This document shows, in pieces, positions 1-30,306 of a stretch of DNA of 64,000 bases. Below the pieces are notes generated by a model. The model had not been told where the DNA came from. It did not search any database and saw nothing but the letters and a program-made list of their open reading frames with translations. How positions within the stretch are numbered: the stretch's first letter is position 1; each line of letters starts with the position of its first letter. The position numbers and the translations under genes are program-made. The stretch is from Minisyncoccota bacterium (GTDB lineage: Bacteria; Patescibacteriota; Minisyncoccia; Phycocordibacterales; UBA9973), in the NCBI GenBank assembly GCA_018061035.1, contig JAGOUX010000001.1, forward strand, positions 76,249 to 140,248. Reading direction: 5' to 3'.

Positions 1-141
1 TTTTTTCAATTTCACCATCAAACTTCTCATTTGAGTTTTGGAATCTTTGGTTAAGATATTCCTCCACTTCTCTCTTGATTTTCTCATTACTAGAGTTTTT
101 ACCAATAATTTTATCAATGTGTGGTGGTAAGTTGTTTTCCA
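1..141 (-). CDS. hypothetical protein, 5' portion only (gene runs off the window start)
   Basis: Reverse-strand ATG at 141 opens MENNLPPHIDKIIGKNSSNEKIKREVEEYLNQRF... which stays open to position 1. No family recognised. Confidence 0.3.
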
Positions 142-199
142 TAACTAAAGTATATCAAATTTTTGATTTTTTCTGCAAAAATGCTATATTTTTCCTATT

Positions 200-271
200 G
201 GCCCTATCGTCTAACGGCTAGGACGGATCCTTCTCAAGGATCAAATCAGAGTTCGATTCTCTGTAGGGTCA
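200..271 (+). tRNA. tRNA-Glu (anticodon CTC)
   Basis: Cloverleaf parsed by eye. Acceptor GGCCCTA/TAGGGTC, D-stem GTCT/GGAC, anticodon stem GATCC/GGATC with loop TTCTCAA, and T-loop GTTCGATTC. Confidence 0.8.
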
Positions 272-558
272 CAAATTGCGAAAAGCAGATAAACTGCTTT
301 ATCTGTGGGCAATTTGTGAAGGCACAAGCATAATCCGCCAGCTGGCGGATAGCCGAGCCGGGGTCGGCAAGTACTTACGTAGAATTTAAGCAAAGCGAAA
401 AATTATACTTAGTAACTTGTGACCACATGAACGCAGAATGCGAAGCATACTAAATACGACTGCAAGCAAATTATTAGAACTTTGCAATTTCTAAACAAGG
501 ACATTATTTTCAAGAATACATCCTTGTATTATTCCATCATAGTTATATACTTTAACAT

Positions 559-1140
559 ATGCCTATTGTACTCATAACGCTTAGTCTAATAATTACAACA
601 TCTTTTTTAGCAAAAAACGCAAAGAAGGAAAATACAAAATTAGGATATTTTCTTGTGCTAGTGAGTGGAATTATAATTTTTTTATTTGAACCACTAATTC
701 AAATTTTTCTACTTGAAATTAGTAGTCCGTCCTCTTCTTTGATTTCTCTTTTTGGCTTATATTTTATTGTGCTCGCAATAGTACAATTAATTAAATTAAT
801 GAAGAATGAGAATAGAAGTTTAATAAAATTTAGCAATAAAAACATTTTAACAATCATAGTTTCTGTTTTTCTTTTTATAGCTTTATTTGACGGCTTACCT
901 TATGGATATTTTACTTTTTTAAGATTTGCTGTTTGTGCTGTTGGACTTTATATTGCATATCAAATATATCAAATCAATAAAGAATCATTATGGGTCTGGT
1001 TTTTTGGCTCTATTGTTGTTTTATTTAACCCGATTATAGTTATTCACCTAGAAAGAGAACAATGGTGGGTTATTGATTTGATTGTTGGAATATTTTTTGT
1101 AATATCTCTGTTTTTATTAAAGGCAAATAAAAATAATTAA
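559..1140 (+). CDS. polytopic membrane protein, hypothetical
   Basis: 193-aa ORF that is strongly hydrophobic with several predicted TM helices. No motif recognised. Confidence 0.5.
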   Translation: MPIVLITLSLIITTSFLAKNAKKENTKLGYFLVLVSGIIIFLFEPLIQIFLLEISSPSSSLISLFGLYFIVLAIVQLIKLMKNENRSLIKFSNKNILTIIVSVFLFIALFDGLPYGYFTFLRFAVCAVGLYIAYQIYQINKESLWVWFFGSIVVLFNPIIVIHLEREQWWVIDLIVGIFFVISLFLLKANKNN

Positions 1141-1143
1141 TTT

Positions 1144-1461
1144 GTGACACGAGAACAATATAAGCAAAAATTTAAAACATGTGTTCATGATTGGACACTT
1201 CACATGGATGCTGACAGTGGTGACAGGAAGAGTAATTCCATTTTTATGTGTGAAAACTGCAAAACCATAGTTACAATGCTAGAAAGAAACTCTTTAGATT
1301 CTTTAAAGCTGAAGGAAAAAGCGATGAAAGACAGCTTGCTGTCTCAACAAGATTCTCAAAAGATTCAAGAGAAAAGTATTCGAATTTCTGCATGGACTGC
1401 CGCACTGACAATAGTAGTTGCTGTTATCGTATTTCTTTTTGGAGATGGGATTTTGAAATAA
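1144..1461 (+). CDS. hypothetical small protein (Cys/His cluster, C-terminal TM helix)
   Basis: GTG start 4 nt after the upstream stop. Contains C-x-H...C-x-x-C and a hydrophobic C-terminus. Confidence 0.4.
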   Translation: MTREQYKQKFKTCVHDWTLHMDADSGDRKSNSIFMCENCKTIVTMLERNSLDSLKLKEKAMKDSLLSQQDSQKIQEKSIRISAWTAALTIVVAVIVFLFGDGILK

Positions 1462-1507
1462 TTTACACTGGAAGAAAAGTTTCACGTCAACTATTTATAG
1501 TAGATTA

Positions 1508-2056
1508 TTAGTTAATAACTGTAGTGATCTTATTTGCAATCGGGTCATATGTTCTATGCATAGACTTAACCTGCATTTTAGATATTTTTAAAATATAAGT
1601 TAGAAAATCTTTTATATCTAAAGAATATAGACAGTCTTCTTTTTGCCAGTCAGAGGTTACAAAAATACGCCTTATACATCCATTTCTACTTGAAAGAACC
1701 TGAAGGACGTGAGCGTGTATGAATTGATTTAATAGATTTACAAGTGATAAATTAGTTTTGATTGATTTATCAAAATCATACAATTTTTCATAATCAAAAC
1801 TCAGACTTTGAATTCTACTATTTCTCTTGTATTTAACACATTTCAATTCTAGGTTTTTAGCAGAATCGGGTAATCTTTGTGACTCGAGTAATTTCCTGAT
1901 TGAAAAAGCCATTAAAAATAGCTTTATTTCAATTTTGGAAAAATGTTCGTCAAACTTATATCCATCAAGGTCCCAAATTTTAACATCTACCTTTTTTTGT
2001 ATATAAGATATATCTCGTTTGAGGTCCTTTTTCCAGTAATAGGATTCAAATGCCAT
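1508..2056 (-). CDS. hypothetical protein
   Basis: 182-aa ORF with no recognisable domain. Confidence 0.4.
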   Translation of the reverse strand: MAFESYYWKKDLKRDISYIQKKVDVKIWDLDGYKFDEHFSKIEIKLFLMAFSIRKLLESQRLPDSAKNLELKCVKYKRNSRIQSLSFDYEKLYDFDKSIKTNLSLVNLLNQFIHAHVLQVLSSRNGCIRRIFVTSDWQKEDCLYSLDIKDFLTYILKISKMQVKSMHRTYDPIANKITTVIN

Positions 2057-2176
2057 ACAGAAAGATTATAGCAGACTCCTATGCTGATTCCAGAAAGTCC
2101 TTATCTAATTGAAAACTGAGTTCTAATTCCATATAATTAATGGAATGGACTACAAAACCATAATCAGCATTATTTG

Positions 2177-2611
2177 ATGTTATAATCTGCCTATGTTAAT
2201 TAATCTAATTCTAAATCTTGCACTCGGGGTACTCGTAGGCTTCATTCTTGAATTCGTTTACCGGTCTCAACAAGCCAAGAAAATTGTTTGGCCGGAATTT
2301 ATAAATATATTTATGTATGGAATAGTAGGAGTATGCCTAGTCTTACTATATTATTCTCATCTGAATTTATGGCTCGAACTAATTCTTCTCCTAATCATAC
2401 CTAGCTTAATTGAATTCCTAACTGGATACATATATTTAAAGTTTAAAGGAATTTATCTATGGGATTATTCACAAGAATTTTTAAACTTTAGGTCCATCAT
2501 TTGTATGAAATTTTCTTTAGCATGGTTTGTTCTTGCTGCGTTATACTACTATTTTATTTTTCCAAAAATATTTCTCTCATAGACACGTAAACAATTCCCT
2601 CCTTCCAATTA
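2177..2611 (+). repeat. 435-bp direct repeat, copy 1 (contains a 129-aa membrane-protein gene)
   Basis: Identical to 4639-5073 at an offset of 2462 bp. Match limits were found by flank comparison. Confidence 0.85.
2193..2582 (+). CDS. small membrane protein (4 predicted TM), copy 1
   Basis: 129-aa hydrophobic ORF that is identical to the ORF at 4655-5044. Confidence 0.5.
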   Translation: MLINLILNLALGVLVGFILEFVYRSQQAKKIVWPEFINIFMYGIVGVCLVLLYYSHLNLWLELILLLIIPSLIEFLTGYIYLKFKGIYLWDYSQEFLNFRSIICMKFSLAWFVLAALYYYFIFPKIFLS

Positions 2612-2753
2612 CTCCTCAAAATATAAAAGCCTCGTGAGAAGTTTCCTTTTCACGAGGCCATGAACCTCGTGAGGTTCATACTTGCGATAGCAAGATTTGA
2701 TGTGATGGTGCTTGGCTCGGCGGAGAGAATATCCTCCGCCGAGCGCGAGCAAG

Positions 2754-3188
2754 TTATTCCTCGTCCATCAGGACTTTGAGACGCTGATGAGAGAGCTTCT
2801 CGAGCTCGCTCCCTAGTTCGGCTACAGTATAAATCGTAAGCCAGTCATCGACGTCGAGCACGTCGTCGTAAGGACGAATCTTCTCCAAGAACGCGGCGCT
2901 TTGCTCGTGGTTGAAGAAAATTTTGCTTTCGGCAATGTCCATGAGATTCTGGACCGATGTTGCCTGGGCGATATCCGACATCAGGATCTCGTCCTCTTTC
3001 CGCCCGAGAACATCAGATTCCTTCGTCTCGGGAGGCTGGCTGAACTGCGCGCCTTGCGGAGGAGCACCACCTTGTTGCATGTTGGAGGCAAATTCGTCCC
3101 GCAGGATCTTCCTGATTCCAACAATTCCCAGCAGGACGGCGATGGTGATAAGAATCGACGTCACGTCAAAACTGATTCCCATTAGCAT
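2754..3188 (-). CDS. hypothetical membrane-anchored protein in a GC-rich patch
   Basis: 144-aa ORF with an N-terminal TM helix followed by an acidic soluble domain. Local GC is well above the window background. A stack of hairpins lies downstream at 2630-2745. Confidence 0.4.
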   Translation of the reverse strand: MLMGISFDVTSILITIAVLLGIVGIRKILRDEFASNMQQGGAPPQGAQFSQPPETKESDVLGRKEDEILMSDIAQATSVQNLMDIAESKIFFNHEQSAAFLEKIRPYDDVLDVDDWLTIYTVAELGSELEKLSHQRLKVLMDEE

Positions 3189-3353
3189 TACTCCTTTGGA
3201 AGGGCCGGCATGCCGGCTGACTGGTGAAAATTACTAAAACTATATAATATAATTGCTAAATGTCAATGCATAGTTTTGAATAAAAGTTCCGTGTAGTGTT
3301 TTCTAAATTCTACATTGCTACGTTTTTTTGGTTTAATGTTATGATTAATAATC

Positions 3354-4016
3354 ATGAAACTAAATTTCACCTACAACAAAGACAAGGATATATGGTGCCT
3401 TCTAAATAAAGACAAGAGTTCTAATAATTCTCAGGCTTCCACCGAGCAGTACCAGCAGCTTATAAATAAATATGGAGAAAATCCAACAGCAGAAAACACG
3501 GCAATTTTTGTTGATGAGTATATTACTGAGAATAATATTGACATCGAGAAGTATATAAAGAATTTTCAAAAGGATTGGGAAAATATCTCTACTGTTTTTC
3601 AAAAAAATGCCGAAGCAATTTTCAATGTTTCACTTCCGACTGATGTAATTGTTTACCTTACAATAAACAGTCGTTGTCCTTACAGCATACAAGACAAGTT
3701 CTTTTATGTATCTCTGCAATCATCACAAGCAACAAAGACTATAATGCACGAGCTCTGGCATTTCTACACATGGTACGGACTTGGAATATACCAAGAGGAA
3801 AAGCTCGGCAAACAAAAATATAATGATATAAAAGAAGCACTGACTGTTTTGTTAAATGTCGAGTGTAAAGATTTATTTCCTGAGGGTGTTATAGATATTG
3901 GTTATCCCCAACACCAGGAAACACGACAACTAATTCTGAATTACTGGGAGAAAAATAAAGATATTAAAAGACTTTGGGAATATTTAGTGAGCTCCCCCAC
4001 CGAACCTACTTTTTAG
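3354..4016 (+). CDS. hypothetical protein with an HExxH motif (possible metallopeptidase-like)
   Basis: 220-aa ORF containing TIMHELWHFYTWYG (HExxH). No further family assignment is possible. Confidence 0.45.
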   Translation: MKLNFTYNKDKDIWCLLNKDKSSNNSQASTEQYQQLINKYGENPTAENTAIFVDEYITENNIDIEKYIKNFQKDWENISTVFQKNAEAIFNVSLPTDVIVYLTINSRCPYSIQDKFFYVSLQSSQATKTIMHELWHFYTWYGLGIYQEEKLGKQKYNDIKEALTVLLNVECKDLFPEGVIDIGYPQHQETRQLILNYWEKNKDIKRLWEYLVSSPTEPTF

Positions 4017-4548
4017 CCGTACAGAAAAACTCTCGCACACACCAGACCTTTCCACCCACTGGCTGGCTTATAGATTCACTAACAAAAGAATTCGGCATTT
4101 TATGTCCACCGTATTTTAAATCAAAAGAATCCATCATTTGTTGAACTTTTCCTGACTGCTTTAATTCTGCTTCGACGTTATTATGAGCTATTTGAGCATT
4201 AGCTCCAGACAACAGTGTTCCGCGTCTATCGAAATAATAATCTGCATCTCTCTCCTCACATTTAACAAAATTGCAATTCCAAATAAATTTAAATTTTTGA
4301 TCAGAAACCTCGATTCTTACAGAAGGGTTTTCGATCCTAGAAGGATATTGTTGTTTCAGGATATTCCCTACTCTATTAGCAAATTCATTTCCACTTTTAT
4401 GTGCTTCTGCTCCGTCTCCGGACTCATATATATATTCTGATTTATTTTGAAAGGATTCGGAAGCGCTGGCGTCCAAAGAAGATACTATCGCTGTTCCAGC
4501 TATTGCCTTACCTACTTGTTTTATAAAATCTCTACGTGACTCGTCCAT
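4006..4548 (-). CDS. secreted hypothetical protein with a twin-arginine (Tat)-type signal
   Basis: N-terminus MDESRRDFIKQVGKAIAGTAIVSS matches the S-R-R-x-F-[LI]-K Tat consensus followed by a hydrophobic h-region. Confidence 0.5.
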   Translation of the reverse strand: MDESRRDFIKQVGKAIAGTAIVSSLDASASESFQNKSEYIYESGDGAEAHKSGNEFANRVGNILKQQYPSRIENPSVRIEVSDQKFKFIWNCNFVKCEERDADYYFDRRGTLLSGANAQIAHNNVEAELKQSGKVQQMMDSFDLKYGGHKMPNSFVSESISQPVGGKVWCVREFFCTAKK

Positions 4549-4638
4549 ATTTCTATATTACCATAGTTTCAAATACCAATAAATCTGAATAAATATTTAA
4601 TAGATATTCCTTTCCACGTGATTTTCTATACAATTATA

Positions 4639-5073
4639 ATGTTATAATCTGCCTATGTTAATTAATCTAATTCTAAATCTTGCACTCGGGGTACTCGTAG
4701 GCTTCATTCTTGAATTCGTTTACCGGTCTCAACAAGCCAAGAAAATTGTTTGGCCGGAATTTATAAATATATTTATGTATGGAATAGTAGGAGTATGCCT
4801 AGTCTTACTATATTATTCTCATCTGAATTTATGGCTCGAACTAATTCTTCTCCTAATCATACCTAGCTTAATTGAATTCCTAACTGGATACATATATTTA
4901 AAGTTTAAAGGAATTTATCTATGGGATTATTCACAAGAATTTTTAAACTTTAGGTCCATCATTTGTATGAAATTTTCTTTAGCATGGTTTGTTCTTGCTG
5001 CGTTATACTACTATTTTATTTTTCCAAAAATATTTCTCTCATAGACACGTAAACAATTCCCTCCTTCCAATTA
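4639..5073 (+). repeat. 435-bp direct repeat, copy 2
   Basis: Identical to 2177-2611. Confidence 0.85.
4655..5044 (+). CDS. small membrane protein, copy 2 (identical to 2193-2582)
   Basis: Identical 129-aa translation. Confidence 0.5.
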   Translation: MLINLILNLALGVLVGFILEFVYRSQQAKKIVWPEFINIFMYGIVGVCLVLLYYSHLNLWLELILLLIIPSLIEFLTGYIYLKFKGIYLWDYSQEFLNFRSIICMKFSLAWFVLAALYYYFIFPKIFLS

Positions 5074-5099
5074 TTCCCCCAAAAAGCTAAAATAAACAC

Positions 5100-5657
5100 A
5101 TGGAACTCACAGAACTAGTTTTAACTCTAAAAATCCCGGCAACCATAGTCCACGTGGTCGCAGTCGTATTTGGTATGGGTAGCGCACTCGTGTCTGATCT
5201 GCTTTTCTCATTCTTCAGCAAAGACAAGCATTTGAACAAGACCGAGATGTCTACCCTCTCTATCCTCGCCACTGCTGTCTTTTATAGTTTAATACTCATC
5301 AGCCTGTCTGGATTAATAATTTTTCTTTCTGATATTGAAAAGTATTCTCATTCTGCAAAATTCCTAGCAAAAATAAGCATTCTCGCAATACTGATAATAA
5401 ATGGTTATGTGCTTAATAAATATGTCTGGCCTCACCTGCTTAATAAAAATTTCTTCACACTCAAGAAAGAACGCAATATCCGCAAGCTCGCCTTCGGATC
5501 CGGAGCAATATCTGTGATCTCTTGGCTCTCTGTCTGCGCTCTCGGAGTATTGGATAGTCTAAATATGCCGTATGTGGCAATCGTTTCCCTATATGCTTCC
5601 ATAATTGTATTGGGAACAATCGTGGCATTAGTTATTGAAAGAAAAGAATTCAACTAG
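5100..5657 (+). CDS. membrane protein, hypothetical
   Basis: 185-aa ORF with multiple hydrophobic segments. Confidence 0.5.
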   Translation: MELTELVLTLKIPATIVHVVAVVFGMGSALVSDLLFSFFSKDKHLNKTEMSTLSILATAVFYSLILISLSGLIIFLSDIEKYSHSAKFLAKISILAILIINGYVLNKYVWPHLLNKNFFTLKKERNIRKLAFGSGAISVISWLSVCALGVLDSLNMPYVAIVSLYASIIVLGTIVALVIERKEFN

Positions 5658-5730
5658 CAACGCCTCGAGAACCGAGACGGCTTCGAGGCGTAAAATAAAA
5701 CTATTATATTAAAAGAACTATTCGCCTGAA

Positions 5731-5765
5731 CCCGCCGGTAGACATTCACGGCGGGTTGTTCTTGC
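5731..5765 (+). terminator. GC hairpin CCCGCCG-N11-CGGCGGG followed by a T-rich tract
   Basis: Inverted repeat read directly. It lies between the 5100-5657 gene and a GC-rich patch. Confidence 0.4.
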
Positions 5766-5766
5766 G

Positions 5767-6141
5767 CTATCCCCGCTTTATTTCATTGGTCAACATGATT
5801 GCCCGCGGACCATGAATCCTGCGAATCCCATCGAACGATCTCGAGGGAGGCACGACCATGCGTTCCCTCGACAGCACCTGGCTGATGTACACCACATCGT
5901 TCGGATTCGGATCACTAAAGATCCTCAGGATAGTCTCACCCTCCTTCAGGATGAGGTACGGGGGCCTTTCCACCAGGAACTCATCTGCCCGCGCGATCTC
6001 CGTCAGGAACTTCTGATTCTCCGGCAGACTGACCGGAGTGATCTTCGAGGGGAGGAAGCCGTATTTCATCATGAGGGACACCAGCAACTTCATGCTGAGT
6101 GAGTTGACCTCCACGGTCGTGATCATTTCCAAAACAAACAT
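5767..6141 (-). CDS. hypothetical protein (GC-rich patch)
   Basis: 124-aa ORF. Several overlapping ORFs exist in this GC-rich patch, so frame choice is uncertain. Confidence 0.3.
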   Translation of the reverse strand: MFVLEMITTVEVNSLSMKLLVSLMMKYGFLPSKITPVSLPENQKFLTEIARADEFLVERPPYLILKEGETILRIFSDPNPNDVVYISQVLSRERMVVPPSRSFDGIRRIHGPRAIMLTNEIKRG

Positions 6142-6202
6142 CTGACATCCTCTCTGTGATTTGCATTCCCCGCCGGCGTGAGTGCCGGCGGGGTCTTACT
6201 CA

Positions 6203-6514
6203 CTACTTGGGAACGGCAGCCTTGACCTGATCGACGATCGTGCTCGACTCCACGCCCTCGTGAACGGCCATGTTGCCACTCTCGGCGTGGATAATGTACA
6301 AAACGGGGTACCGTGGACGGGCCGCTCCGTAATGAAAGAAGCCCTTTTGAACCGCCTTCTGCTCGAAATAGTGAGCAAAAGGATCACCGGCAGTGAGAGG
6401 CGACGTATTGTAGCCAGCCGCCTGAAGTGCGTTCCGACATTTCGCGTACTCCGAGGCATTTCCCGACGAACCGCCGACAAGTTCTACTTGTAGCACAGGA
6501 ACCTCCACACGCAT
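6203..6514 (-). CDS. hypothetical protein (GC-rich patch)
   Basis: 103-aa ORF that overlaps two alternative ORFs on other frames. Chosen because it is co-directional with 5767-6141 and its composition looks protein-like. Confidence 0.25.
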   Translation of the reverse strand: MRVEVPVLQVELVGGSSGNASEYAKCRNALQAAGYNTSPLTAGDPFAHYFEQKAVQKGFFHYGAARPRYPVLYIIHAESGNMAVHEGVESSTIVDQVKAAVPK

Positions 6515-6605
6515 ACAATATAATTCCAGAATGAAAGTGTCAATATACTACAATTTGCAGTTCGCAAATAGATTATGAGATAATAAAATCAAAGAGAGGT
6601 GCACC

Positions 6606-6914
6606 ATGACAAATGAGCGGCTCGAAAAGCTTGGAGTTGTCGCCTTTGCAACAGGTATTGTGGTAGCGATAGATGGTATCGACGTTCCTCCATTTATCGT
6701 CTTCACTCTCACTTGCGGCGGCGCGGCAATCCTCGTGTTTTTGCACGACGCCTTCAAGTGGGCACTCGGCTCCGCGATTTTTATCGCTGCGGCCGTCTGT
6801 GCCTCGTCATGCACTAGCGACAAGTACATCCTGGCTGGTTGCTTTGCGATCTTCATGCTTGGCGTGAACTTCGCGCGACTTCTGGTCGGCGAAATGAAAA
6901 AGGAAATTGTTTGA
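6606..6914 (+). CDS. small membrane protein (GC-rich patch)
   Basis: 102-aa hydrophobic ORF. It is followed by a perfect 14+14 palindrome, TGGCCGGCGTCGTATACGACGCCGGCCA, at about 6923-6950. Confidence 0.35.
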   Translation: MTNERLEKLGVVAFATGIVVAIDGIDVPPFIVFTLTCGGAAILVFLHDAFKWALGSAIFIAAAVCASSCTSDKYILAGCFAIFMLGVNFARLLVGEMKKEIV

Positions 6915-7012
6915 TCAGTGGCCGGCGTCGTATACGACGCCGGCCATATTTATTTTAAATAAATCTAAGTTGATGCTATAATGGCACTATTATAATTAGT
7001 AAATATAAAAAT

Positions 7013-7387
7013 ATGAAAACAAAAGCACTTATTATAGGAATCATAATCATCGCCATCATCGGTTTTGCAGTAAATAAGCGTTCCGATAATGCACCGACAG
7101 TAGTAACTCCTGCGACCAACGATACAACAGGAATTCAAAAGGCTGAAACAGATTCATACACCATGGCCGAAGTAGCTACTCATAATACTCAGGCAGATTG
7201 TTGGACAACTATTAGTGGTAGTGTTTACAACGTAACTTCATGGATATCTGAGCACCCAGGAGGAGCAAAAGCTATCATCGGATTGTGTGGCATCGACGGC
7301 ACAGCAGGATTCACCGGACAGCACGGAGGACAGCCACGACCAGCAACAGAGCTTGCAGGATTCAAAATCGGAGCTCTCGCAAACTAG
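7013..7387 (+). CDS. cytochrome b5-like heme-binding domain protein with an N-terminal membrane anchor
   Basis: A-H-N-x(5)-C-W-x(4)-G-x-V-Y-N-V-T-x-W-x-x-E-H-P-G-G matches the cytochrome b5 family signature (HPGG). The N-terminus is a TM helix. Confidence 0.6.
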   Translation: MKTKALIIGIIIIAIIGFAVNKRSDNAPTVVTPATNDTTGIQKAETDSYTMAEVATHNTQADCWTTISGSVYNVTSWISEHPGGAKAIIGLCGIDGTAGFTGQHGGQPRPATELAGFKIGALAN

Positions 7388-7394
7388 ATATAAA

Positions 7395-8687
7395 TTATTT
7401 TTTCTCCAACCACTCAGGCTCTTGGCGCACCAAGAGCCTGTTTTGGTTTTTCTTGTCTTTTAGTATTGCTGATACGACTCTCTCCATGCGTACTCCTTGA
7501 GACCCTTTGACCAAAACCAAATCATTTTTTTCTAGTAATTTCTCTGCAAATGCTCCTGCTTCTGTAGAATTTGTAAAATCAAATATACTACCTTCGCTCA
7601 TGCCCGCCTCTATTGCACCCACTTTTATATCGCAAGCCCTAGGACCAACTACTACCAATATATCTGCATTCTCTTTTGCCACCTTTCCTACATTCTTATG
7701 GGCTTCGACTGTGTGTTTTCCGAGCTCAAGCATGTCGCCCAAAATCGCTATTTTCCTGCCACCATTAACTTCGCGAAGTGTGCGAAGTGCGCTTTCACAA
7801 GCAAATGGAGAAGAATTGTAAGTATCATCAATAATAAATGTATCATTGATTCCTGACAACAAACGCATACGACCTGCTGGTACATCATATGCTTTAAGGT
7901 GTTCGATAGCATGAAGAACATTGAATTTCAAACCTACAGATAATGTGATAGCAGCCAAAGATGCATATAAATGATTTCTTCCAAAAACTCCTTCGATAGC
8001 CACAGGCATACTGACCCCACTTTCATCAACACGGAAAATTATACCCTCGGGAATTCCATCGATGCCGTAATATATATTATCTTGCGAGGCCACTACATCT
8101 GCCTCAGGATTAAATCCATAAGTGATAGTGCGACATTTAGTTTTTTCCTTCATCCCTAATACGGCTTCATCGTCAGCATTGAGCACCAATAGTCCATCTT
8201 TTTTTAAGGTTTTAATGAGCTCACTTTTTTCTTCAATCAAATGTTTGCGAGAAGAAAAGAATTCTATATGTGCAGGTGTTTCTCCGATGGCAGTAATAAT
8301 TACTGCATCTGTCTTTAGCCATGATGCGGTTTTTTTCATGTCACCCGGCTTACCTACGCCCACCTCAAGGACTAGCCATTTGGGATATTTATGAGGTGCA
8401 ATGATCAACCACAAACCTAATAGGAAATTTTCGAACCAAACAAAAGGATTATTCCAACCATTTGGTAATCCGAGAATAGTTAACGGTAAACCAATTTCAC
8501 TATTGTAGCTCTTTTGACTTTTGCGCACATGGGTCATGCCTGAGAGTGCGGCATAAACCGCATCCTTTGTAGAAGTCTTACCTAGGCTACCAGTGATAGC
8601 TATAACCTTCGGCTTGTACTTCCAAAGCACAGCTCGAGACTCCATCTGAAGTACGTATGAAATTGATGTTTTTACAAATGCTCTCAT
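7395..8687 (-). CDS. murF: UDP-N-acetylmuramoyl-tripeptide--D-alanyl-D-alanine ligase
   Basis: Mur ligase P-loop GSLGKTSTKD and a DDTYNSSP motif. It sits downstream of ftsI in the dcw order. Confidence 0.85.
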   Translation of the reverse strand: MRAFVKTSISYVLQMESRAVLWKYKPKVIAITGSLGKTSTKDAVYAALSGMTHVRKSQKSYNSEIGLPLTILGLPNGWNNPFVWFENFLLGLWLIIAPHKYPKWLVLEVGVGKPGDMKKTASWLKTDAVIITAIGETPAHIEFFSSRKHLIEEKSELIKTLKKDGLLVLNADDEAVLGMKEKTKCRTITYGFNPEADVVASQDNIYYGIDGIPEGIIFRVDESGVSMPVAIEGVFGRNHLYASLAAITLSVGLKFNVLHAIEHLKAYDVPAGRMRLLSGINDTFIIDDTYNSSPFACESALRTLREVNGGRKIAILGDMLELGKHTVEAHKNVGKVAKENADILVVVGPRACDIKVGAIEAGMSEGSIFDFTNSTEAGAFAEKLLEKNDLVLVKGSQGVRMERVVSAILKDKKNQNRLLVRQEPEWLEKK

Positions 8688-8719
8688 GAATTGATTTATA
8701 CAAGTAATTAATAACAGTT

Positions 8720-10432
8720 CTATCTATCCGGCGGAACTTCGTAATAGTTTAGCAAAAACTTTGTTATATCCAAAAAAGGATCAGACCAAGTAGTAGCCGC
8801 ATACTGAGAACCCTTGGGATTTACTGCGTACAAAAAGACTATAAATTTCGGCTCATAAGCTGGGAAATATCCAAAAAATGAATGTGTGTGCCTATCTTCA
8901 TAGTAGCCTCCACCTCCATCCTTTGCAACCTGGGCTGTACCTGTTTTTACGGCAACACTATAATGATCGAGCTTGCCAAGGCCTCCTTTGATAGACTTGT
9001 CCATTACTGTTACAAGCATAGAAGTGATTTCTTCTGCCGTGGCCTTGCTGATCTTGCTCTGTGTTGTCGGATATTCCATCTTTTTAGATGTCCCATCATC
9101 GTATTTTATTTCTTTCACAAGATGTGGCACGACTAATGTACCTCCATTTCCAAGTGCTGCAAGTGCTCGAGTAATCTCGATCGGAGTAAGAGCGATACCT
9201 TGACCGAATGCAGCGTTGGCGTACTCAAGCTCTCTCGGGCTTTGAAGGTTGGAAACAAGACCACTAGTCTCATTTGGCAGGTCTATACCAGTTTTTTCTT
9301 TGATGCCAAAAGACAATAGATAATCTCGAAATCTTTCTTTGCCCAATTTTTGCTCTACAAAAACCATACCAGTGTTGAGTGACTGATTGAGCACATCCTG
9401 CATACTAGTGCCGGGGCCACGTCCTTGCTTGTCGAAATTAAATATTTCTTTTTTCTCAACTATTACAGAACCTTTGTCATTATAAGTCGTAGATGGTGTC
9501 ACCACTTTAGCATCAAGCGCGGCTGCCATTACAAGTGGCTTGACCACAGATCCAAATTCAAGCACATTTTCGACTATTGGATTAGAAAAAGTTGTTGCAC
9601 TTTTAACTTTAGAAAAATTATTAATATCGAAATCCGGCTTTACCGAAATCGCATAGATTGATCCATCGGTAGGATTCATAATTATGCCTCCGATAGAATC
9701 GGTCGAATACTTTGCTTTAACTGTGTTTAAAGTTTTCTCAAATTGACTCTGGACTGTGGGTTCGATAGTGCTCACCAAATTGCCTCCCTTCACTTGGTCG
9801 TCAAAAAATGTATCGCTAATATTAGAAAAAACTTCCGCGAAAAAGTTTACATAAGGATTATTCTTATCTCTAGCTAAAACTGTTTCATATTGTCGCTCTA
9901 GGCCATATCTCCCGCCCAGTTCATTGCCTTTATAGCCCACGAAGCCGACACTATGTGCTGCCATATTATCACCCGGATAAAATCGCCATTTCTCTTTGAA
10001 CAAAGAAATTCCCGATATTGCCAAAGCAGTAATCTTATCAGCTTCTTCTTTTGAAAGATGATGAGTGATTTCTTCATATGTATCACTTTTCTTATTCGCA
10101 CGTGCAAGAAAATCATTCTTATCAATTTCAATTATCTGAGAAAGTTTATTATAGGTTCCTTCAGCATCTGCCATCTTGCTTGGATCTATAGCCATTTTAA
10201 ATCCCGAGGTTTGAGTAGCAGCCGACACAAGAGTATTGTCCTTGGTACTGAAATATATAGTACCCCTTTCAAAGATATTTGATGATGGGGTGGCATATTG
10301 CCTGTCTGCCAACTCAGCGTAATAATTTTTATTAACTACTTGCACCAAAAAAAGCTTGCCACCAAGCAAGAGAGTAAATAGCACGATACCAAGAAAAAGA
10401 ATTTTAGTCCTAACCAAAAAACTAGATTTCAT
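8720..10432 (-). CDS. ftsI: peptidoglycan D,D-transpeptidase (class B PBP, FtsI-like)
   Basis: N-terminal TM helix with SVVKP (SxxK) and KTGTAQ (KTG) motifs. It has the dcw cluster position. Confidence 0.85.
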   Translation of the reverse strand: MKSSFLVRTKILFLGIVLFTLLLGGKLFLVQVVNKNYYAELADRQYATPSSNIFERGTIYFSTKDNTLVSAATQTSGFKMAIDPSKMADAEGTYNKLSQIIEIDKNDFLARANKKSDTYEEITHHLSKEEADKITALAISGISLFKEKWRFYPGDNMAAHSVGFVGYKGNELGGRYGLERQYETVLARDKNNPYVNFFAEVFSNISDTFFDDQVKGGNLVSTIEPTVQSQFEKTLNTVKAKYSTDSIGGIIMNPTDGSIYAISVKPDFDINNFSKVKSATTFSNPIVENVLEFGSVVKPLVMAAALDAKVVTPSTTYNDKGSVIVEKKEIFNFDKQGRGPGTSMQDVLNQSLNTGMVFVEQKLGKERFRDYLLSFGIKEKTGIDLPNETSGLVSNLQSPRELEYANAAFGQGIALTPIEITRALAALGNGGTLVVPHLVKEIKYDDGTSKKMEYPTTQSKISKATAEEITSMLVTVMDKSIKGGLGKLDHYSVAVKTGTAQVAKDGGGGYYEDRHTHSFFGYFPAYEPKFIVFLYAVNPKGSQYAATTWSDPFLDITKFLLNYYEVPPDR

Positions 10433-19928: not shown

Positions 19929-20025
19929 AGCGATGAAACTAAGCAAAAATATAATAACATTTATATGGAAAATTGCAAAAATTGACCCTAAACTTTAATG
20001 ATGTTAATCTTTTAGCGGAGGCAAA

Positions 20026-20244
20026 ATGGTGACACAAAGTTGTGTGAGAGAATTTTTGCGTGCAATATCTGGCGCAACAAGACCGGTCACTGATCAGACC
20101 ATGGTCACTGATCTTGGTCTGTTCCATACGACCATCGCGAAGGTTGAGATTCGTTACCGTAGAATTTTGACCATGCCCGACGAGAGCGCGGCAACCGTGC
20201 GGGACATCATTCACCAGATCGCTGGCCAAGATGACACCTTCTAG
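20026..20244 (+). CDS. hypothetical small protein (GC-rich islet)
   Basis: GGAGG is 5 nt upstream of the ATG. Composition is GC-rich. First gene of a two-gene unit. Confidence 0.4.
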   Translation: MVTQSCVREFLRAISGATRPVTDQTMVTDLGLFHTTIAKVEIRYRRILTMPDESAATVRDIIHQIAGQDDTF

Positions 20245-20253
20245 GAGAAGAAC

Positions 20254-20523
20254 ATGACTGAAGCTAATTCTTCTATTTGGTGGAGCGTGTTTTCTTTCAT
20301 CCGCTTCCACACAAACATCGAGATCGGTGAAGGCACACTGTTGTCAGACATCAAGCGTTATCCAGCAGGGCTCGTCATGTTGTGCGAGCATCACTACGGA
20401 ATCGAGCTCAACATCGACAAACCAATGTCGGAGATCACAGTGGGAAGGCTCATTCGCGCGATCTTGCAAGCTCAAGTGAGCAAAGCAAGAGAAAGGGCAA
20501 GCCAGGCTGCCTCAGAAGCCTGA
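20254..20523 (+). CDS. hypothetical small protein (GC-rich islet)
   Basis: AGGAGA RBS, 9 nt after the upstream stop. A terminator hairpin follows at 20552-20592. Confidence 0.4.
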   Translation: MTEANSSIWWSVFSFIRFHTNIEIGEGTLLSDIKRYPAGLVMLCEHHYGIELNIDKPMSEITVGRLIRAILQAQVSKARERASQAASEA

Positions 20524-20551
20524 TAGTTCTTCGGTGTATTTGCGACCAGTG

Positions 20552-20592
20552 GGCCGGATGTCTCAGACACTCCGGCCATTACTTTTTATTTT
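20552..20592 (+). terminator. rho-independent terminator (GGCCGGA-N12-TCCGGCC then a T-run)
   Basis: Read directly from the sequence. Confidence 0.6.
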
Positions 20593-20742
20593 TATATTCA
20601 AAATGAGTGTATTTAAACGAAAGCACCCCACAAAAGCTGGGCGCCTTGCGGGGTGTTGATGAAAACTATTTTATTTAAAAAAAAGAACATTTCTATTTGC
20701 CCTCCCCGCTCCGACTTTCGCCGGAGCGGGTCGCTGACATTC

Positions 20743-21129
20743 TCAGTGCAGCGTGATCTTGGGTGGTGCCTTTGGCTCCATGCCAAGGTACATCTTGCCA
20801 ATCATCATCAGGAACTCTGGCGCCGGAAGGCATGCGGCCAGAAGAACCGTCTCGTCATCGCACAGAAATACCGCAGGAACACCCTCAGTCGCTCGGTTCC
20901 CGTAACGATTGGCCGCTGTTGCCTCTTCATGCAGTTCACCAAAGTGAACTGCACAAATGTCGCTGAACTCGATGTGGTTCACCAACAACCACTCGCGAAT
21001 CTGTTCACAGCGTGGATCGTGCGGATTCGGACCGAAGTACACCCGAATATTTGGATTGACCAATTCAGTCACAATACCTCCACGAAAGAAAGCTGCCTCG
21101 GTACCATGATGGTGCGAGGCAGAGATCAA
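20743..21129 (-). CDS. thioredoxin-fold (glutaredoxin-like) protein, start uncertain (no ATG; TTG/GTG)
   Basis: beta-alpha-beta order ...IRVYFGPNPHDPRCEQIREWLL...TEGVPAVFL.DDETVL resembles the glutaredoxin layout with a single Cys. GC-rich. Confidence 0.35.
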   Translation of the reverse strand: MISASHHHGTEAAFFRGGIVTELVNPNIRVYFGPNPHDPRCEQIREWLLVNHIEFSDICAVHFGELHEEATAANRYGNRATEGVPAVFLCDDETVLLAACLPAPEFLMMIGKMYLGMEPKAPPKITLH

Positions 21130-21222
21130 AACCGATATTACACTAGAAGAAAGGACAAACGAGATGTACTCCCCGTCCTCGCTCCGACTGGTATTCGGAG
21201 CGAGGAATCGGTCAGGTGGCGC

Positions 21223-21414
21223 CTATTCGCGATCGCCGCCGCAGTTCTTGCAAATGAGCACTCCGCCGAGACGGAGAAGCGGCTCACCGCAGGTCTCGCA
21301 ACTCAACTCCACAACCTGCGAAGGACGCCGGGCGATGATCTTCTGGACCATTGCGCGGGCCGCCGCAGTCTTCGACGGGTCGAACACGAGCCCGAGTTCA
21401 GCACATGTTTGCAT
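21223..21414 (-). CDS. small zinc-ribbon protein
   Basis: AAGGAG RBS 7 nt before the ATG. Two CxxC pairs (CETCG...CKNCG). Confidence 0.5.
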   Translation of the reverse strand: MQTCAELGLVFDPSKTAAARAMVQKIIARRPSQVVELSCETCGEPLLRLGGVLICKNCGGDRE

Positions 21415-21508
21415 GGTACATCTCCTTAATCAACATAATACCCCTATTTATCAAATCTGTCAATAATATTTAATTGAAAAAGAAGAGGCATAATGCTACT
21501 CTGTCTCT

Positions 21509-22255
21509 ATGGATAATGTCCAAATAATCATATTGGCCGCGGGTAAAGGCACACGAATGAACTCCGAGGAGCCCAAGGCTCTTGCTTTGCTCAAGGGCAA
21601 GCCTTTTTTAAAGCACATACTAGAAACCCTCGAAACTCTCAACCTCGCTCTCCCGCCAGTCATTGTTGTCGGTCACAAAAAGGAGCGAATATTCGAGGTT
21701 GTCGGACCAGACTACACATATGCAAACCAGCATGAACAACTCGGCACAGGGCATGCAGTAATGTCCGCCAAAGAAAGCCTTCATGATGATCACAAAATAA
21801 TATTAGTGATCTCAACCGACCAACCTCTCATCTCAAAAGAAACAATTTTGAACATTATCGAAAAGCACAAAGCACATGGCTCTACTATCACCATGGCCAC
21901 AGCCACACTCCCCGACTTCGAGGATTGGCGCGCGGGACTGGTGAAGTTCGGCAGAATATTGCGAGATAAAAATGGCGACCTTGAAAGCATCGTGGAATTC
22001 AAAGATGCAACCGATGAGCAAAAAAATATTACCGAAGTTAATCCCGCACTGTATGCTTTTGACGCGAAGTGGCTTTGGGAAAATATTGGTAAGCTCGGCA
22101 AACAAAATGCTCAAGGCGAATACTATCTTACTGATCTGATCCACCTGGCATTCGAGCAACACAAGAATATTGAAACTGTGCCACTTTCAAACACCAACGA
22201 AGTAATCCAGCCGAATTCGCAAGAAGAGCTTGAATTATTGGAGAAATTTGCGTAA
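21509..22255 (+). CDS. sugar-phosphate nucleotidyltransferase (GlmU N-terminal-like domain only)
   Basis: LAAGKGTRM nucleotidyltransferase signature. At 248 aa it lacks the acetyltransferase hexapeptide domain. Confidence 0.7.
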
Positions 22256-22266
22256 AGTACATTAAT

Positions 22267-22339
22267 GCGCGGTTAGCTCAGTTGGTAGAGCGACCCCTTG
22301 ACGTGGGGTAGGCCACAGGTTCGAATCCTGTATCGCGCA
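22267..22339 (+). tRNA. tRNA-Val (anticodon GAC)
   Basis: Acceptor GCGCGGT/ATCGCGC, D-arm GCTCAGTTGGTAGAGC, anticodon stem ACCCC/GGGGT with loop TTGACGT, and T-arm ACAGGTTCGAATCCTGT. Confidence 0.85.
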
Positions 22340-28260: not shown

Positions 28261-28281
28261 AACATACTGAGTTATTATTTG

Positions 28282-28354
28282 TGCCGAGGACCAGAGTTGA
28301 ACTGGTGACATCTCCCTCTTCAGGGGAGCGCTCTACCAACTGAGCTACCTCGGC
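28282..28354 (-). tRNA. tRNA-Phe (anticodon GAA)
   Basis: Acceptor GCCGAGG/CCTCGGC, D-arm AGCTCAGTTGGTAGAGC, anticodon stem CTCCC/GGGAG with loop CTGAAGA. Confidence 0.85.
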
Positions 28355-28422
28355 ATATTCTACTTATTGTAACTTAATTTGCGTATACCTACCAAAACAG
28401 CTACCTCGGCATATTCTACTTA

Positions 28423-28829: not shown

Positions 28830-29063
28830 TTAAAGCCCGAGTAATTCTACTATCTTTGGCTTATTAAAGCCGATAATCATATCATTATCGATTATTATTA
28901 CAGGCACACCCATCTGACCACTTTTATCGATCAATTCAGCTCTTAGATTAGCATCAGAAGCTACATCATGATCAGTAAAGGCAATATTATTTTCCTTAAA
29001 AAAGTCTTTGGCCATGTGGCAAAAATGACAAGATGGGGTTGAGTAAATAGTTACGTTTTTCAT
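28830..29063 (-). CDS. glutaredoxin-like protein
   Basis: 77 aa with a CHFC active site after beta1, a GVPVIIID motif and a thioredoxin fold. Confidence 0.75.
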   Translation of the reverse strand: MKNVTIYSTPSCHFCHMAKDFFKENNIAFTDHDVASDANLRAELIDKSGQMGVPVIIIDNDMIIGFNKPKIVELLGL

Positions 29064-29189
29064 ATATTTAAATAATTAGCTGATAGGCATCCATTATAAC
29101 ATGGGTCAAAAATGATGCAAAAGTTATAAAACGCTGCCAAGCATCTCGGCCCAGCAGCGTTCAATGATTTTGTTTTTTCTTGTCTCGCC

Positions 29190-29789
29190 TTATTTGATAG
29201 ACGTCGGTGGCTTGGGTTGGATGTCAATATTCATCTGGTCGGGTGCAGTCCCATCCAGAACCCGATACACCTGTGCCTTGGCGTCGTAGCCCGTGTGGTA
29301 ATGCAGAGAGCGCCAGGCAATATCGCCTGGCTGAGCGAGTGAACACTTGAGCGCCCTATCGTCTCCGATGAAGGTGTAATCCCACCGCTCGCCCGTTTGA
29401 GGGTTAACTGCCAAGATCATGCAAGCCGCCCTCTCGCTTGCAATTTGCTTGGTGTCTGTAGAGCCGACAAGCGCGCCGAATGCCGTGCTTGTGAGAACAC
29501 CAATCGGTGTCCCATTCAAGAGGACCGCAACGCCGCCGCCCACGGCCGCCCCAGTACCTGCGTTCGACTTGACGGTCGAAATCACCGTGCGGTTTTGACG
29601 AACCGACTCGACAAGCCATGGTGTCCACTTCCAGACCCCAAGGATGTCTTTCTGCTCCCAAGGCGCGGGGAGCTGGACTTTGGCTTCCGTCGACACAGTT
29701 TGAACCGCCCTGCCCTTCTGGGCAAAAACCGGCGGCATAGCACAACATAGAGCAATTACAACTACGAAGAACAACCTAGCTCGGTTCAT
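29190..29789 (-). CDS. secreted hypothetical protein (GC-rich islet)
   Basis: Sec signal MNRARLFFVVVIALCCAMPPVFAQ. GC content is far above background. Confidence 0.5.
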   Translation of the reverse strand: MNRARLFFVVVIALCCAMPPVFAQKGRAVQTVSTEAKVQLPAPWEQKDILGVWKWTPWLVESVRQNRTVISTVKSNAGTGAAVGGGVAVLLNGTPIGVLTSTAFGALVGSTDTKQIASERAACMILAVNPQTGERWDYTFIGDDRALKCSLAQPGDIAWRSLHYHTGYDAKAQVYRVLDGTAPDQMNIDIQPKPPTSIK

Positions 29790-29849
29790 TTGTTTCTCCC
29801 TCCTTTCATTTTTATACCATAATAAGTTAAAAAATCAAGTTTATGATTG

Positions 29850-29920
29850 TGCGGGGTGCGGGGATCGAACCCGCGTCTCAGCCTTGGGAAGGCCGCATCA
29901 TACCACTAAAATAATCCCGC
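29850..29920 (-). tRNA. tRNA-Gly (anticodon CCC) with an atypical D-arm
   Basis: Acceptor GCGGGAT/ACCCCGC (one A.C mismatch), anticodon stem CGGCC/GGCTG with loop TTCCCAA, and a perfect T-arm GCGGGTTCGATCCCCGC. The D-stem pairs poorly. Confidence 0.55.
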
Positions 29921-29934
29921 TGTTTTTTAAATAT

Positions 29935-30306
29935 TTATTTAAACCAATTTCTAAAGAATGAAAAGAAGCCATTATCTTCTTTTTGAGCTGGAATTTCAGA
30001 CTTCTCATCGACAACAATTATCAATTTCTCCCCTTCTTTGGCTAAGCCGAATTTCTCTCGAATACTTGCTTCTTTGCCTTTATCTGTATCGAGGGCAACT
30101 ATATCGAGACTTAATTTTTCTTTTGTTCTAGCTAGCTCTCTGACCTTATCTTCTGCAATATTTTTATTCTTACGAGTATTTTCCATTTTACCGAGCAATC
30201 CCACAACACCCCAAGCAAAAAACAACAGCAACAAGCCAAATAAAAACAAAAAAGGCCATGATAGGAAAATTTGGCTTGCACCTCTTTTTTCTTGAAAATT
30301 CCGCAT
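29935..30306 (-). CDS. single-TM coiled-coil protein (FtsB/DivIC-like?)
   Basis: 123 aa with an N-terminal TM helix followed by a charged coiled-coil segment. The family call is weak. Confidence 0.35.
   Translation of the reverse strand: MRNFQEKRGASQIFLSWPFLFLFGLLLLFFAWGVVGLLGKMENTRKNKNIAEDKVRELARTKEKLSLDIVALDTDKGKEASIREKFGLAKEGEKLIIVVDEKSEIPAQKEDNGFFSFFRNWFK

Follow-up and report, generated by a model that had tools for sequence, protein, structure and literature searches.

Identical direct repeats of a PF06541 membrane-protein gene and structural alleles of a variable region beside tRNA-Glu in Paceibacteria

A 435-bp sequence that carries a complete membrane-protein gene (here called R) is present twice, in the same orientation, in the variable region that separates a tRNA-Glu gene from the cell-wall genes (mraW/PBP/murF cluster) of a Paceibacteria genome, which NCBI lists as a "Candidatus Pacebacteria" MAG (the genes concerned are KBD55_00470 through KBD55_00490). 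Our best reading of this locus is that recombination drives a polymorphism in the presence of a segment within a mosaic variable region next to tRNA-Glu. We think it fairly probable that the two copies, R1 and R2, are a genuine dispersed direct duplication of the PF06541 gene and that they act there as substrates for the host's homologous recombination. This is ordinary strain-to-strain gain and loss of genes by recombination, and not a new element or mechanism. Positions are those of the analyzed window, a 64-kb stretch of DNA in which R is the sole long repeat.

The initial annotation had described R1 (positions 2177–2611, plus strand) and R2 (4639–5073, plus strand) as apparently identical, and on careful alignment they are a perfect match at 435 of 435 bp; its coordinates were all correct. 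Such a match cannot arise by chance, although the copies may be less than perfectly alike if small bubbles between them were popped during assembly. The match does not extend by even one bp to the left and on the right it ends exactly at 2611/5073. Local alignments of 60–300 bp past the edges are no better than those of shuffled sequences (p = 0.05–1.0), so the boundaries of R are sharp. Each copy contains a complete 129-AA open reading frame together with 16 bp upstream (with a TATAAT box) and 29 bp downstream; these genes occupy 2193–2582 (MBP9711496.1, which would be KBD55_00470 by its neighbours' numbering) and 4655–5044 (KBD55_00490, MBP9711500.1), both on the plus strand. The protein has the four hydrophobic segments expected from its earlier description as a four-TM protein, and it is a small polytopic membrane protein that belongs to family PF06541 (ABC_trans_CmpB, DUF1113), with a score of 70.6 bits against a gathering threshold of 25.9 over model positions 5–120 of 151. 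Only three other relatives of it were found among 5.8 billion proteins.

The region as assembled in the MAG begins at its left with tRNA-Glu(CTC) (200–272, plus strand; found by ARAGORN and Rfam) and the non-coding block "a" (273–475). Block A' (476–2176) follows with three AT-rich genes (GC3 0.18–0.31) that encode a 193-AA DUF6804 membrane protein (559–1140, plus strand) and proteins of 105 AAs (1144–1461, plus strand) and 182 AAs (1508–2056, minus strand). To the right of R1 are block G (2612–3271), which is GC-rich and foreign in composition and contains a hairpin array, a gene for a 144-AA protein and that gene's promoter region, and block Y (3272–4638), which is followed by R2. Block B (5074–7000) encodes a 185-AA membrane protein (5100–5657, plus strand) followed by a second GC-rich patch (about 5700–6950, GC3 0.59–0.75). 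Across these blocks GC3 thus ranges in mosaic fashion from 0.18 to 0.75.

Three structural alleles of this locus are present in public data. The first is that of the MAG, with the order a-A'-R-G-Y-R-B. The second, A'-R-B, is found on contig JAHZTN010027118.1 of assembly GCA_020047435.1 (5411 bp; called L001 here), in which window positions 1339–2611 are joined directly to 5074–9211 with no mismatches over the common 5.4 kb. L001 lacks one R and the 2027-bp interval between the copies and is otherwise 100% identical to the MAG; it retains exactly one repeat copy between identical flanks, and this is the structure expected of the product of recombination between R1 and R2. The initial annotation had suggested, as one of several possibilities, that the repeats are a substrate for recombination, and this independent contig supports that suggestion. 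Among contigs other than the Logan contigs described below, the three interval genes are found on one (that of the MAG) and the genes for the flanking 129-, 182- and 185-AA proteins on two; the absence of the interval genes from GCA_020047435.1 is by itself weak evidence, because that assembly is fragmentary and also lacks the 193-AA gene of block A'.

The third allele, a-Y-R-B, comes from a strain that is about 1% diverged (JGI 3300043411, a 2955-bp contig called L011 here). Its homology to the window begins only at about 261–264, within the 3'-end of tRNA-Glu; its positions 623–834 align by blastn to 264–475, 48 unique bp come next, and it then continues with 3272–5344 at 98.6% identity. L011 therefore has no A', R1 or block G, which is also missing from L001, and a search of its 48-bp filler for a remnant of block G gave only weak, unconvincing matches. 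Block "a" (97.6% identical in L011) is the left anchor of both this allele and that of the MAG, R2 is the orthologue of L011's lone R, and block B follows R in all three alleles. The layout of L011 shows that Y, R and B adjoin on the chromosome of an independently sampled strain, where no R precedes Y. Public data hold further strain variation in the form of a variant of the 185-AA protein (P0130).

Comparison with sister genomes, which the initial annotation had recommended for finding the ancestral arrangement, was informative about adjacency in the case of L011, but distant relatives of the 129-AA protein, at 40–53% identity in GTDB genomes and JGI metagenomes (L005, L012 and L013), have no neighbouring gene in common with the window and so say nothing of the ancestral state. 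The idea that a single copy without an insert is ancestral is not supported, since L011 already has the genes for the 220- and 180-AA proteins of block Y directly 5' of R-B; relative to this outgroup the extra DNA in the MAG is 476–3271 rather than 2612–4638. Y-R-B is probably the older adjacency, judging from this one outgroup contig, and from this we infer that A'-R-B is a deletion derivative. Block Y (99.3% identical in L011) has diverged by 0.66% between the MAG and L011 and its flanks by 2.1% (p = 0.015), and this low divergence would also be compatible with an A'-R-B genome having acquired Y recently. The suggestion of ongoing amplification found no counterpart in the data; nothing points to more than two copies, and the assembly contains one unit plus one extra R. 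The R of L011 differs from that of the MAG at 16 positions (about 12 silent differences and four AA changes), all of which fall at R positions 155–250 (Fisher p = 6e-14 for clustering relative to the rest of the alignment); outside of this 96-bp tract it is identical to both MAG copies. Such a clustered divergent tract indicates that recombination is active at the locus.

A second line of evidence comes from Logan contigs of run SRR11088468 (k = 31), which were assembled separately from the MAG and show the topology of the junctions. Their independence is of the assembler and not of the reads if, as may be the case, this run contains the MAG's own reads. These contigs support five of the six MAG junctions (a/A', A'/R, R/G, G/Y and Y/R), and the sixth, R/B, is seen only in L001 and L011. 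The contigs that cover 337–1280 (L015, which crosses the a/A' junction), 1251–2206 (L004) and 2582–4668 (L002) are all 100% identical to the window. L004 ends after exactly 30 bp of R, a sign that the graph branches at the R head, and L002 carries 30 bp of R at each end; such end points are expected where two paths (A' and Y) lead into R and two (G and B) lead out of it.

The region is thus a simple loop in the k = 31 graph, and short-read de Bruijn-graph assemblers can cross such loops without proof from a single molecule. It could therefore be argued that no single chromosome has two full copies of R and that the assembler threaded the loop once, having met an A'-R-B haplotype together with a second haplotype in which G-Y-R-B follows a fragment of the R tail (at least 30 bp) or some k-mer-sharing sequence. 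The existence of several strains of this lineage in public data (that of L011 and that of the 185-AA variant) and of A'-R-B as an uninterrupted contig elsewhere would suit this explanation. On the other hand, the junction between the R tail and G must exist in some molecule, so there is real R sequence 5' of G; the only known Y-R-B haplotype, L011, has neither G nor a remnant of R upstream; and A' and B of the MAG are both 100% identical to L001, with no chimeric seam except possibly inside R. The k = 31 junctions reduce the likelihood of an artefact, which we regard as unlikely but worth keeping in mind. The MAG assembly indicates that one molecule carries A', a full-length R in front of G, and B, a linkage beyond what the k = 31 contigs can show.

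We consider it improbable that R1 and R2 are instead old PF06541 paralogues, a tandem-like pair that a recent whole-gene conversion made identical. R does approximate one gene unit with short margins, and the clustered and mostly silent differences in the 96-bp tract imply patchy recombination in the R gene between strains. However, there is no residual similarity past either boundary, the related strain has one R at the locus, and each of the distant relatives has one PF06541 homologue within up to 10 kb on each side. In addition, the identity of the L011 R to both MAG copies outside the tract fits a recent copying event better than an old pair.

The genes between the copies had been called an accessory segment, and this is only partly so: the gene for the 144-AA protein (142 AAs as annotated, KBD55_00475; 2754–3188, minus strand) is the only one that looks foreign. 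It is GC-rich, as first reported (GC 52%, and GC3 0.65 vs 0.18–0.39 in neighbouring native genes), its product has one N-terminal TM segment, and it has only eight distant homologues among 1.84 billion representative proteins. Four consecutive hairpins had been noted next to it, and they do form a stable array at about 2628–2750 (MFE −76 kcal/mol), with z-scores of −9.4 (plus strand) and −6.0 (minus strand), that lies 3' of this minus-strand gene. A U-rich tract comes after the last hairpin on the minus strand (2628–2657), as would be expected of an intrinsic terminator. The array matches no Rfam family even at E values up to 1, and we treat its hairpins as terminators of the GC-rich gene.

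The other two interval genes, both in block Y, have a different character. The 220-AA HExxH protein (KBD55_00480; 3354–4016, plus strand) has an HELWH motif that is invariant in 26 homologues, and its family has 632 hits, the named ones of which are Paceibacteria/Patescibacteria, in varied contexts. It matched no family in a Pfam search, and its AF2 model (pLDDT 91) finds the M1/LTA4H peptidases as its best PDB matches, weakly (E about 0.5, TM about 0.3); it is possibly zincin-like. The 180-AA protein (KBD55_00485; 4006–4548, minus strand) was previously described as having a Tat signal, and its SRRDFIK N-terminus and a weak match to the TAT-region model TIGR02811 agree with that description. 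The N-terminus, MDESRRDFIKQVGKAIAGTAIVSSLDASAS, has an S/T-R-R-x-F-L-K-type motif, then a hydrophobic stretch and an A-x-A site, and export is predicted from it. SRR(D/N)F is common to the 12 closest of its 19 homologues, and the more distant ones have other N-termini. Its predicted fold is alpha/beta and has no significant match among solved structures in the PDB; confident models of the interval proteins gave no significant PDB match from which a function could be read. Homologues of the 220- and 180-AA proteins (70–79% identity) are encoded in unrelated neighbourhoods, never together and never beside a PF06541 gene, so the interval does not constitute a conserved module.

Searches of window positions 1–7000 with Pfam, PHROGs, NCBIfam and PADLOC found no integrase, transposase, Rep or defence gene, and comparison with PLSDB and INPHARED and a pattern scan of IMG/VR gave no plasmid or phage relative. 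A transposon or IS element does not explain the locus, as there is no transposase (Pfam, NCBIfam, PHROGs), there are no terminal inverted repeats at 2612/4638, and the duplication is 435 bp long vs the 2–14 bp of target-site duplications. An integrase-mediated tRNA element is likewise rejected for want of an integrase in that part of the window, and the only second copy of the tRNA-Glu 3'-end in the window is in the other tRNA-Glu gene at 19.8 kb. It is very improbable that R-G-Y is a separate 2462-bp circle (a mini-plasmid or episome that the assembler merged or that cycles through recombination at R): the graph is cyclic, a site that lacks the segment and keeps exactly one R is known, and the unit has four complete genes, promoter-like sites of its own and terminator hairpins, but neither a replication initiator (Rep), relaxase, integrase or iteron array nor any match in the three databases was found, L011 has Y-R-B in its chromosome, other Paceibacteria carry the HExxH and Tat-signal genes as ordinary parts of theirs, and an excised circle that does not replicate would be too scarce to assemble.

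With no recombinase encoded by an element, the duplicated R would be used by the homologous recombination machinery of the host. Crossing over between R1 and R2 would remove one R and the interval, a 2462-bp unit, and leave A'-R-B; in the reverse direction, an R-G-Y circle that integrates again, or an incoming DNA fragment with one-sided homology, would restore the MAG allele. This resembles RecA-dependent deletion and duplication between direct repeats, including Campbell-type single-crossover integration and excision, in that a segment is flanked by two identical repeats several hundred bp long, the other allele keeps exactly one repeat, and there is no dedicated recombinase at the site. It is unlike those cases in that the repeat is an intact, apparently functional gene and not an IS or rRNA operon, and in that the event is known here from end alleles and not from a circle or reciprocal product.

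The second R likely originated when an A'-R-type and a G-Y-R-B-type haplotype were joined, with homologous pairing at block "a" or R and illegitimate joining across the short similarity CTCCTCAAAA / TTCCCCCAAAAA. Naturally competent bacteria offer a parallel in transformation-triggered merodiploidy and homology-facilitated illegitimate recombination (HFIR; e.g., PMC3240628). Here the A'-R-B and Y-R-B haplotypes have R-B and block "a" in common, and the R/G joint shows short similarity to the R/B joint, although the mechanism is deduced from end products. According to Johnston et al. (2013; PMC3784515), a fragment that pairs one-sidedly or with an alternative repeat can give rise to a repeat-bordered duplication; the pneumococcal duplications are 100–900 kb long and bordered by IS861 remnants, and the unit here is 2.5 kb. 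The locus also resembles tRNA-adjacent genomic islets or plasticity zones, as it lies directly 3' of tRNA-Glu, is built of mosaic blocks of differing GC3, and differs in gene content between strains that are 99–100% identical elsewhere. Unlike such islets it has no integrase (positions 1–7000) and no direct repeat of the tRNA 3'-end anywhere in the window, and R is unrelated to the tRNA.

A more ambitious view, which we hold to be quite improbable, is that the PF06541 gene is a portable homology arm, such that strains swap or stack cassettes (A', G-Y) between "a" and R by natural transformation and R-G-Y leaves and re-enters as a recombinase-free 2.5-kb circle. If true, an ultra-small bacterium of episymbiotic type would have a cassette system driven by host recombination. 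The polymorphism described here is mainly of use for quality control and as a modest case study. It illustrates how independent public assemblies and k-mer contigs can serve to check a perfect repeat seen in a MAG, and in this instance they uncover one locus with three structural alleles among uncultured Paceibacteria that are nearly identical. The 2.5-kb indel and the imported 96-bp tract show directly that the gene content of this lineage, whose genomes are reduced, is altered by homologous recombination.

The proteins encoded in the window are identical to MBP9711493-MBP9711506 of the NCBI metagenome-assembled genome (MAG) "Candidatus Pacebacteria bacterium" (locus tags KBD55_00455 to about _00520, on a contig of 156,303 bp). 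The repeat locus is bounded on the left by a tRNA-Glu(CTC) gene (200-272) and on the right by the cyt-b5/murF/PBP2/mraW genes (from about 7000), and we divide it into blocks a (273-475), A' (476-2176), G (2612-3271), Y (3272-4638) and B (5074 onward), together with the 435-bp repeat R, whose upstream copy R1 (2177-2611) and downstream copy R2 (4639-5073) enclose the G-Y interval. The two copies are identical at 435 of 435 positions, as the initial annotation had claimed, and their ends are exact; the match extends leftward by 0 bases and stops on the right at 2611/5073. When 60–300 bp beyond each edge are aligned, the scores do not exceed those of shuffled sequence; the boundaries are therefore sharp rather than decayed, and there is no other long repeat within the 64-kb window. 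In the assembly the repeat is genuine, and chance falls far short of explaining it. Each copy comprises an intact 129-amino-acid (aa) ORF (MBP9711496.1 and MBP9711500.1), preceded by 16 bp that include a TATAAT box and followed by 29 bp past the stop codon; the four transmembrane segments attributed to this ORF earlier are present as four hydrophobic segments, and it is a clear member of Pfam family PF06541 (ABC_trans_CmpB/DUF1113; 70.6 bits versus a cutoff of 25.9).

Public data hold these blocks in other arrangements. The MAG allele (1) is a-A'-R-G-Y-R-B. Allele (2), A'-R-B, is found in JAHZTN010027118.1 of GCA_020047435.1 (L001, 5411 bp), in which window 1339-2611 is fused directly to 5074-9211 with zero mismatches; relative to the MAG it lacks one repeat copy plus the 2027-bp interval (2462 bp altogether). 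Allele (3), a-Y-R-B, comes from a related strain (L011; JGI contig Ga0451708_0028659, metagenome 3300043411, 2955 bp) and reads 622 bp of unrelated sequence, window 264-475 (97.6%), 48 unique bp and window 3272-5344 (98.6%), with Y directly upstream of the sole R and with A', R1 and G absent. Homology of L011 to the window is lost at about 261-264, within the tRNA-Glu 3' end, where L011 lacks an intact tRNA and has a degenerate copy of that end, 5 nt shorter (TCGATT-AGGCTCACA). A 57-aa gene lies upstream; clustered at 90% identity it has 22 members, located on many long contigs from many metagenomes. This left part of L011 resembles the boundary of an element inserted at the tRNA-Glu of that strain.

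Assembler-independent evidence comes from Logan contigs (k=31) built from run SRR11088468, three of which match the window at 100%: L015 (337-1280) crosses the a|A' junction, L004 (1251-2206) ends 30 bp inside the head of R, and L002 (2582-4668) starts with the last 30 bp of R and ends 30 bp into its head. Contig ends of this kind in L004 and L002 are the mark of a graph in which A' and Y both enter R and G and B both exit from it. The a|A', A'|R, R|G, G|Y and Y|R junctions are thus present in the raw reads, L001 and L011 supply R|B, and the repeat junctions are read-supported. The Logan contigs show topology, not depth; that the molecule with A' and B also has a full-length R in front of G is probable, and the main alternative, an assembly-graph artefact in which a loop was threaded once or two co-occurring haplotypes were joined via R, we consider unlikely. 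L015 and L004 overlap by 30 bp, both ending at 1251-1280, and L001 begins at 1339, which suggests a further strain-level branch within the 105-aa gene of block A'.

The best supported step is homologous recombination between the R copies as the link from allele (1) to allele (2): all shared bases are identical and the difference is exactly R plus the interval. A crossover between the copies would remove one R together with the interval. Recombination is visibly active in the R gene, since the 16 differences between the L011 and MAG repeats (about 12 silent, 4 amino-acid changing) all fall at R positions 155-250 (window 4793-4888; Fisher p = 6e-14), the other 339 bp being identical. This is the pattern of an imported tract, about 17% divergent. 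The initial annotation had raised a single copy without insert as the possible ancestor. This is probably not so, as L011 is already Y-R-B; with the same arrangement at the same place in a roughly 1%-diverged strain, we infer that the Y-R-B adjacency probably predates the MAG/L001 split, and A'-R-B would then be a deletion derivative and not an ancestral empty site. The opposite direction, import of G-Y-R into an A'-R-B chromosome, is less likely but would be in keeping with the lower divergence of Y (0.66% versus 2.1% in the flanks, p = 0.015).

Between a and R, A' and Y act as alternative cassettes, and the MAG allele resembles a stack of both haplotypes. What follows R1 (CTCCTCAAAATAT) is weakly similar to what follows R2 (TTCCCCCAAAAAG). 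We propose, as a suggestion and not a result, that a fragment ending just past R would pair homologously at a and join illegitimately at this short similarity, giving the observed structure; in pneumococcus, transformation yields comparable repeat-bordered duplications (PMC3784515). That the copies are old paralogues homogenised by gene conversion is distinctly improbable, given the lack of homology in the flanks of R, the single R of L011 and the single copies that more distant relatives show within up to 10 kb on each side. No integrase, transposase, replication protein, defence system or phage family matched the proteins of the interval, A' and B, plasmid and phage searches gave no relative for the 2.9-kb region, and an IMG/VR scan with a 20-nt R-tail pattern found nothing; the interval bears no mark of a self-mobilising nature. 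A free 2462-bp replicon is scarcely credible, as replication functions are absent and Y is chromosomal in L011.

The interval genes noted initially were all recovered. The minus-strand GC-rich ORF (2754-3188; 144 aa, GC 52%) has a foreign base composition, with GC3 0.65 versus 0.18-0.39 in native neighbours; its protein has a single N-terminal transmembrane segment and only 8 homologues, all distant, among 1.84 billion representative proteins. The four stable hairpins downstream (about 2628-2750; z = -9.4) match no Rfam family and are best read as its terminator region, because on the minus strand a U-rich tract follows the last one. The HExxH protein (3354-4016; 220 aa) comes from a well-conserved protein family with 632 matches (identity 57-76% in the best 120 listed), of which those named are Paceibacteria/Patescibacteria; HELWH and three cysteines are invariant across 26 aligned members, and the homologues lie in unrelated neighbourhoods. 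Its AlphaFold model is confident (pLDDT 91), and resemblance to M1/LTA4H zinc peptidase catalytic domains is weak and non-significant. The 180-aa protein (4006-4548) has the twin-arginine leader claimed for it and 19 homologues, likewise in unrelated contexts; no solved structure is significantly related to its model (pLDDT 87.5). A second GC-rich patch at 5700-6950 (GC 52.7%), found in both the MAG and L001, has three small ORFs (GC3 0.59-0.75) without a Pfam match, followed by a strong GC hairpin (6918-6947), and is probably another foreign insertion adjoining the repeat locus.

Elsewhere in the window, at 28333-28422, 34 nt that take in the 5' end of the minus-strand tRNA-Phe gene (28281-28354) and part of the adjacent flank recur beside the gene, 56 bp away, at 91% identity, and may be the remnant of an integration site. 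GC-rich stretches at 20000-22300 and 29000-30000 (48-50% versus a window mean of 38.6%) adjoin tRNA genes (Glu, Ser, Val, Gly), and a full-length match to the LOOT RNA motif (RF03000; 48982-49100, 78.4 bits versus a gathering score of 46.4) is located upstream of an opposite-strand ORF of 214 aa.

The repeat locus is a fresh instance of a well-known type of event, neither a new element nor a new mechanism: R is best read as marking a presence/absence polymorphism driven by recombination, within a mosaic variable region that adjoins a tRNA gene in an uncultured Paceibacteria lineage.
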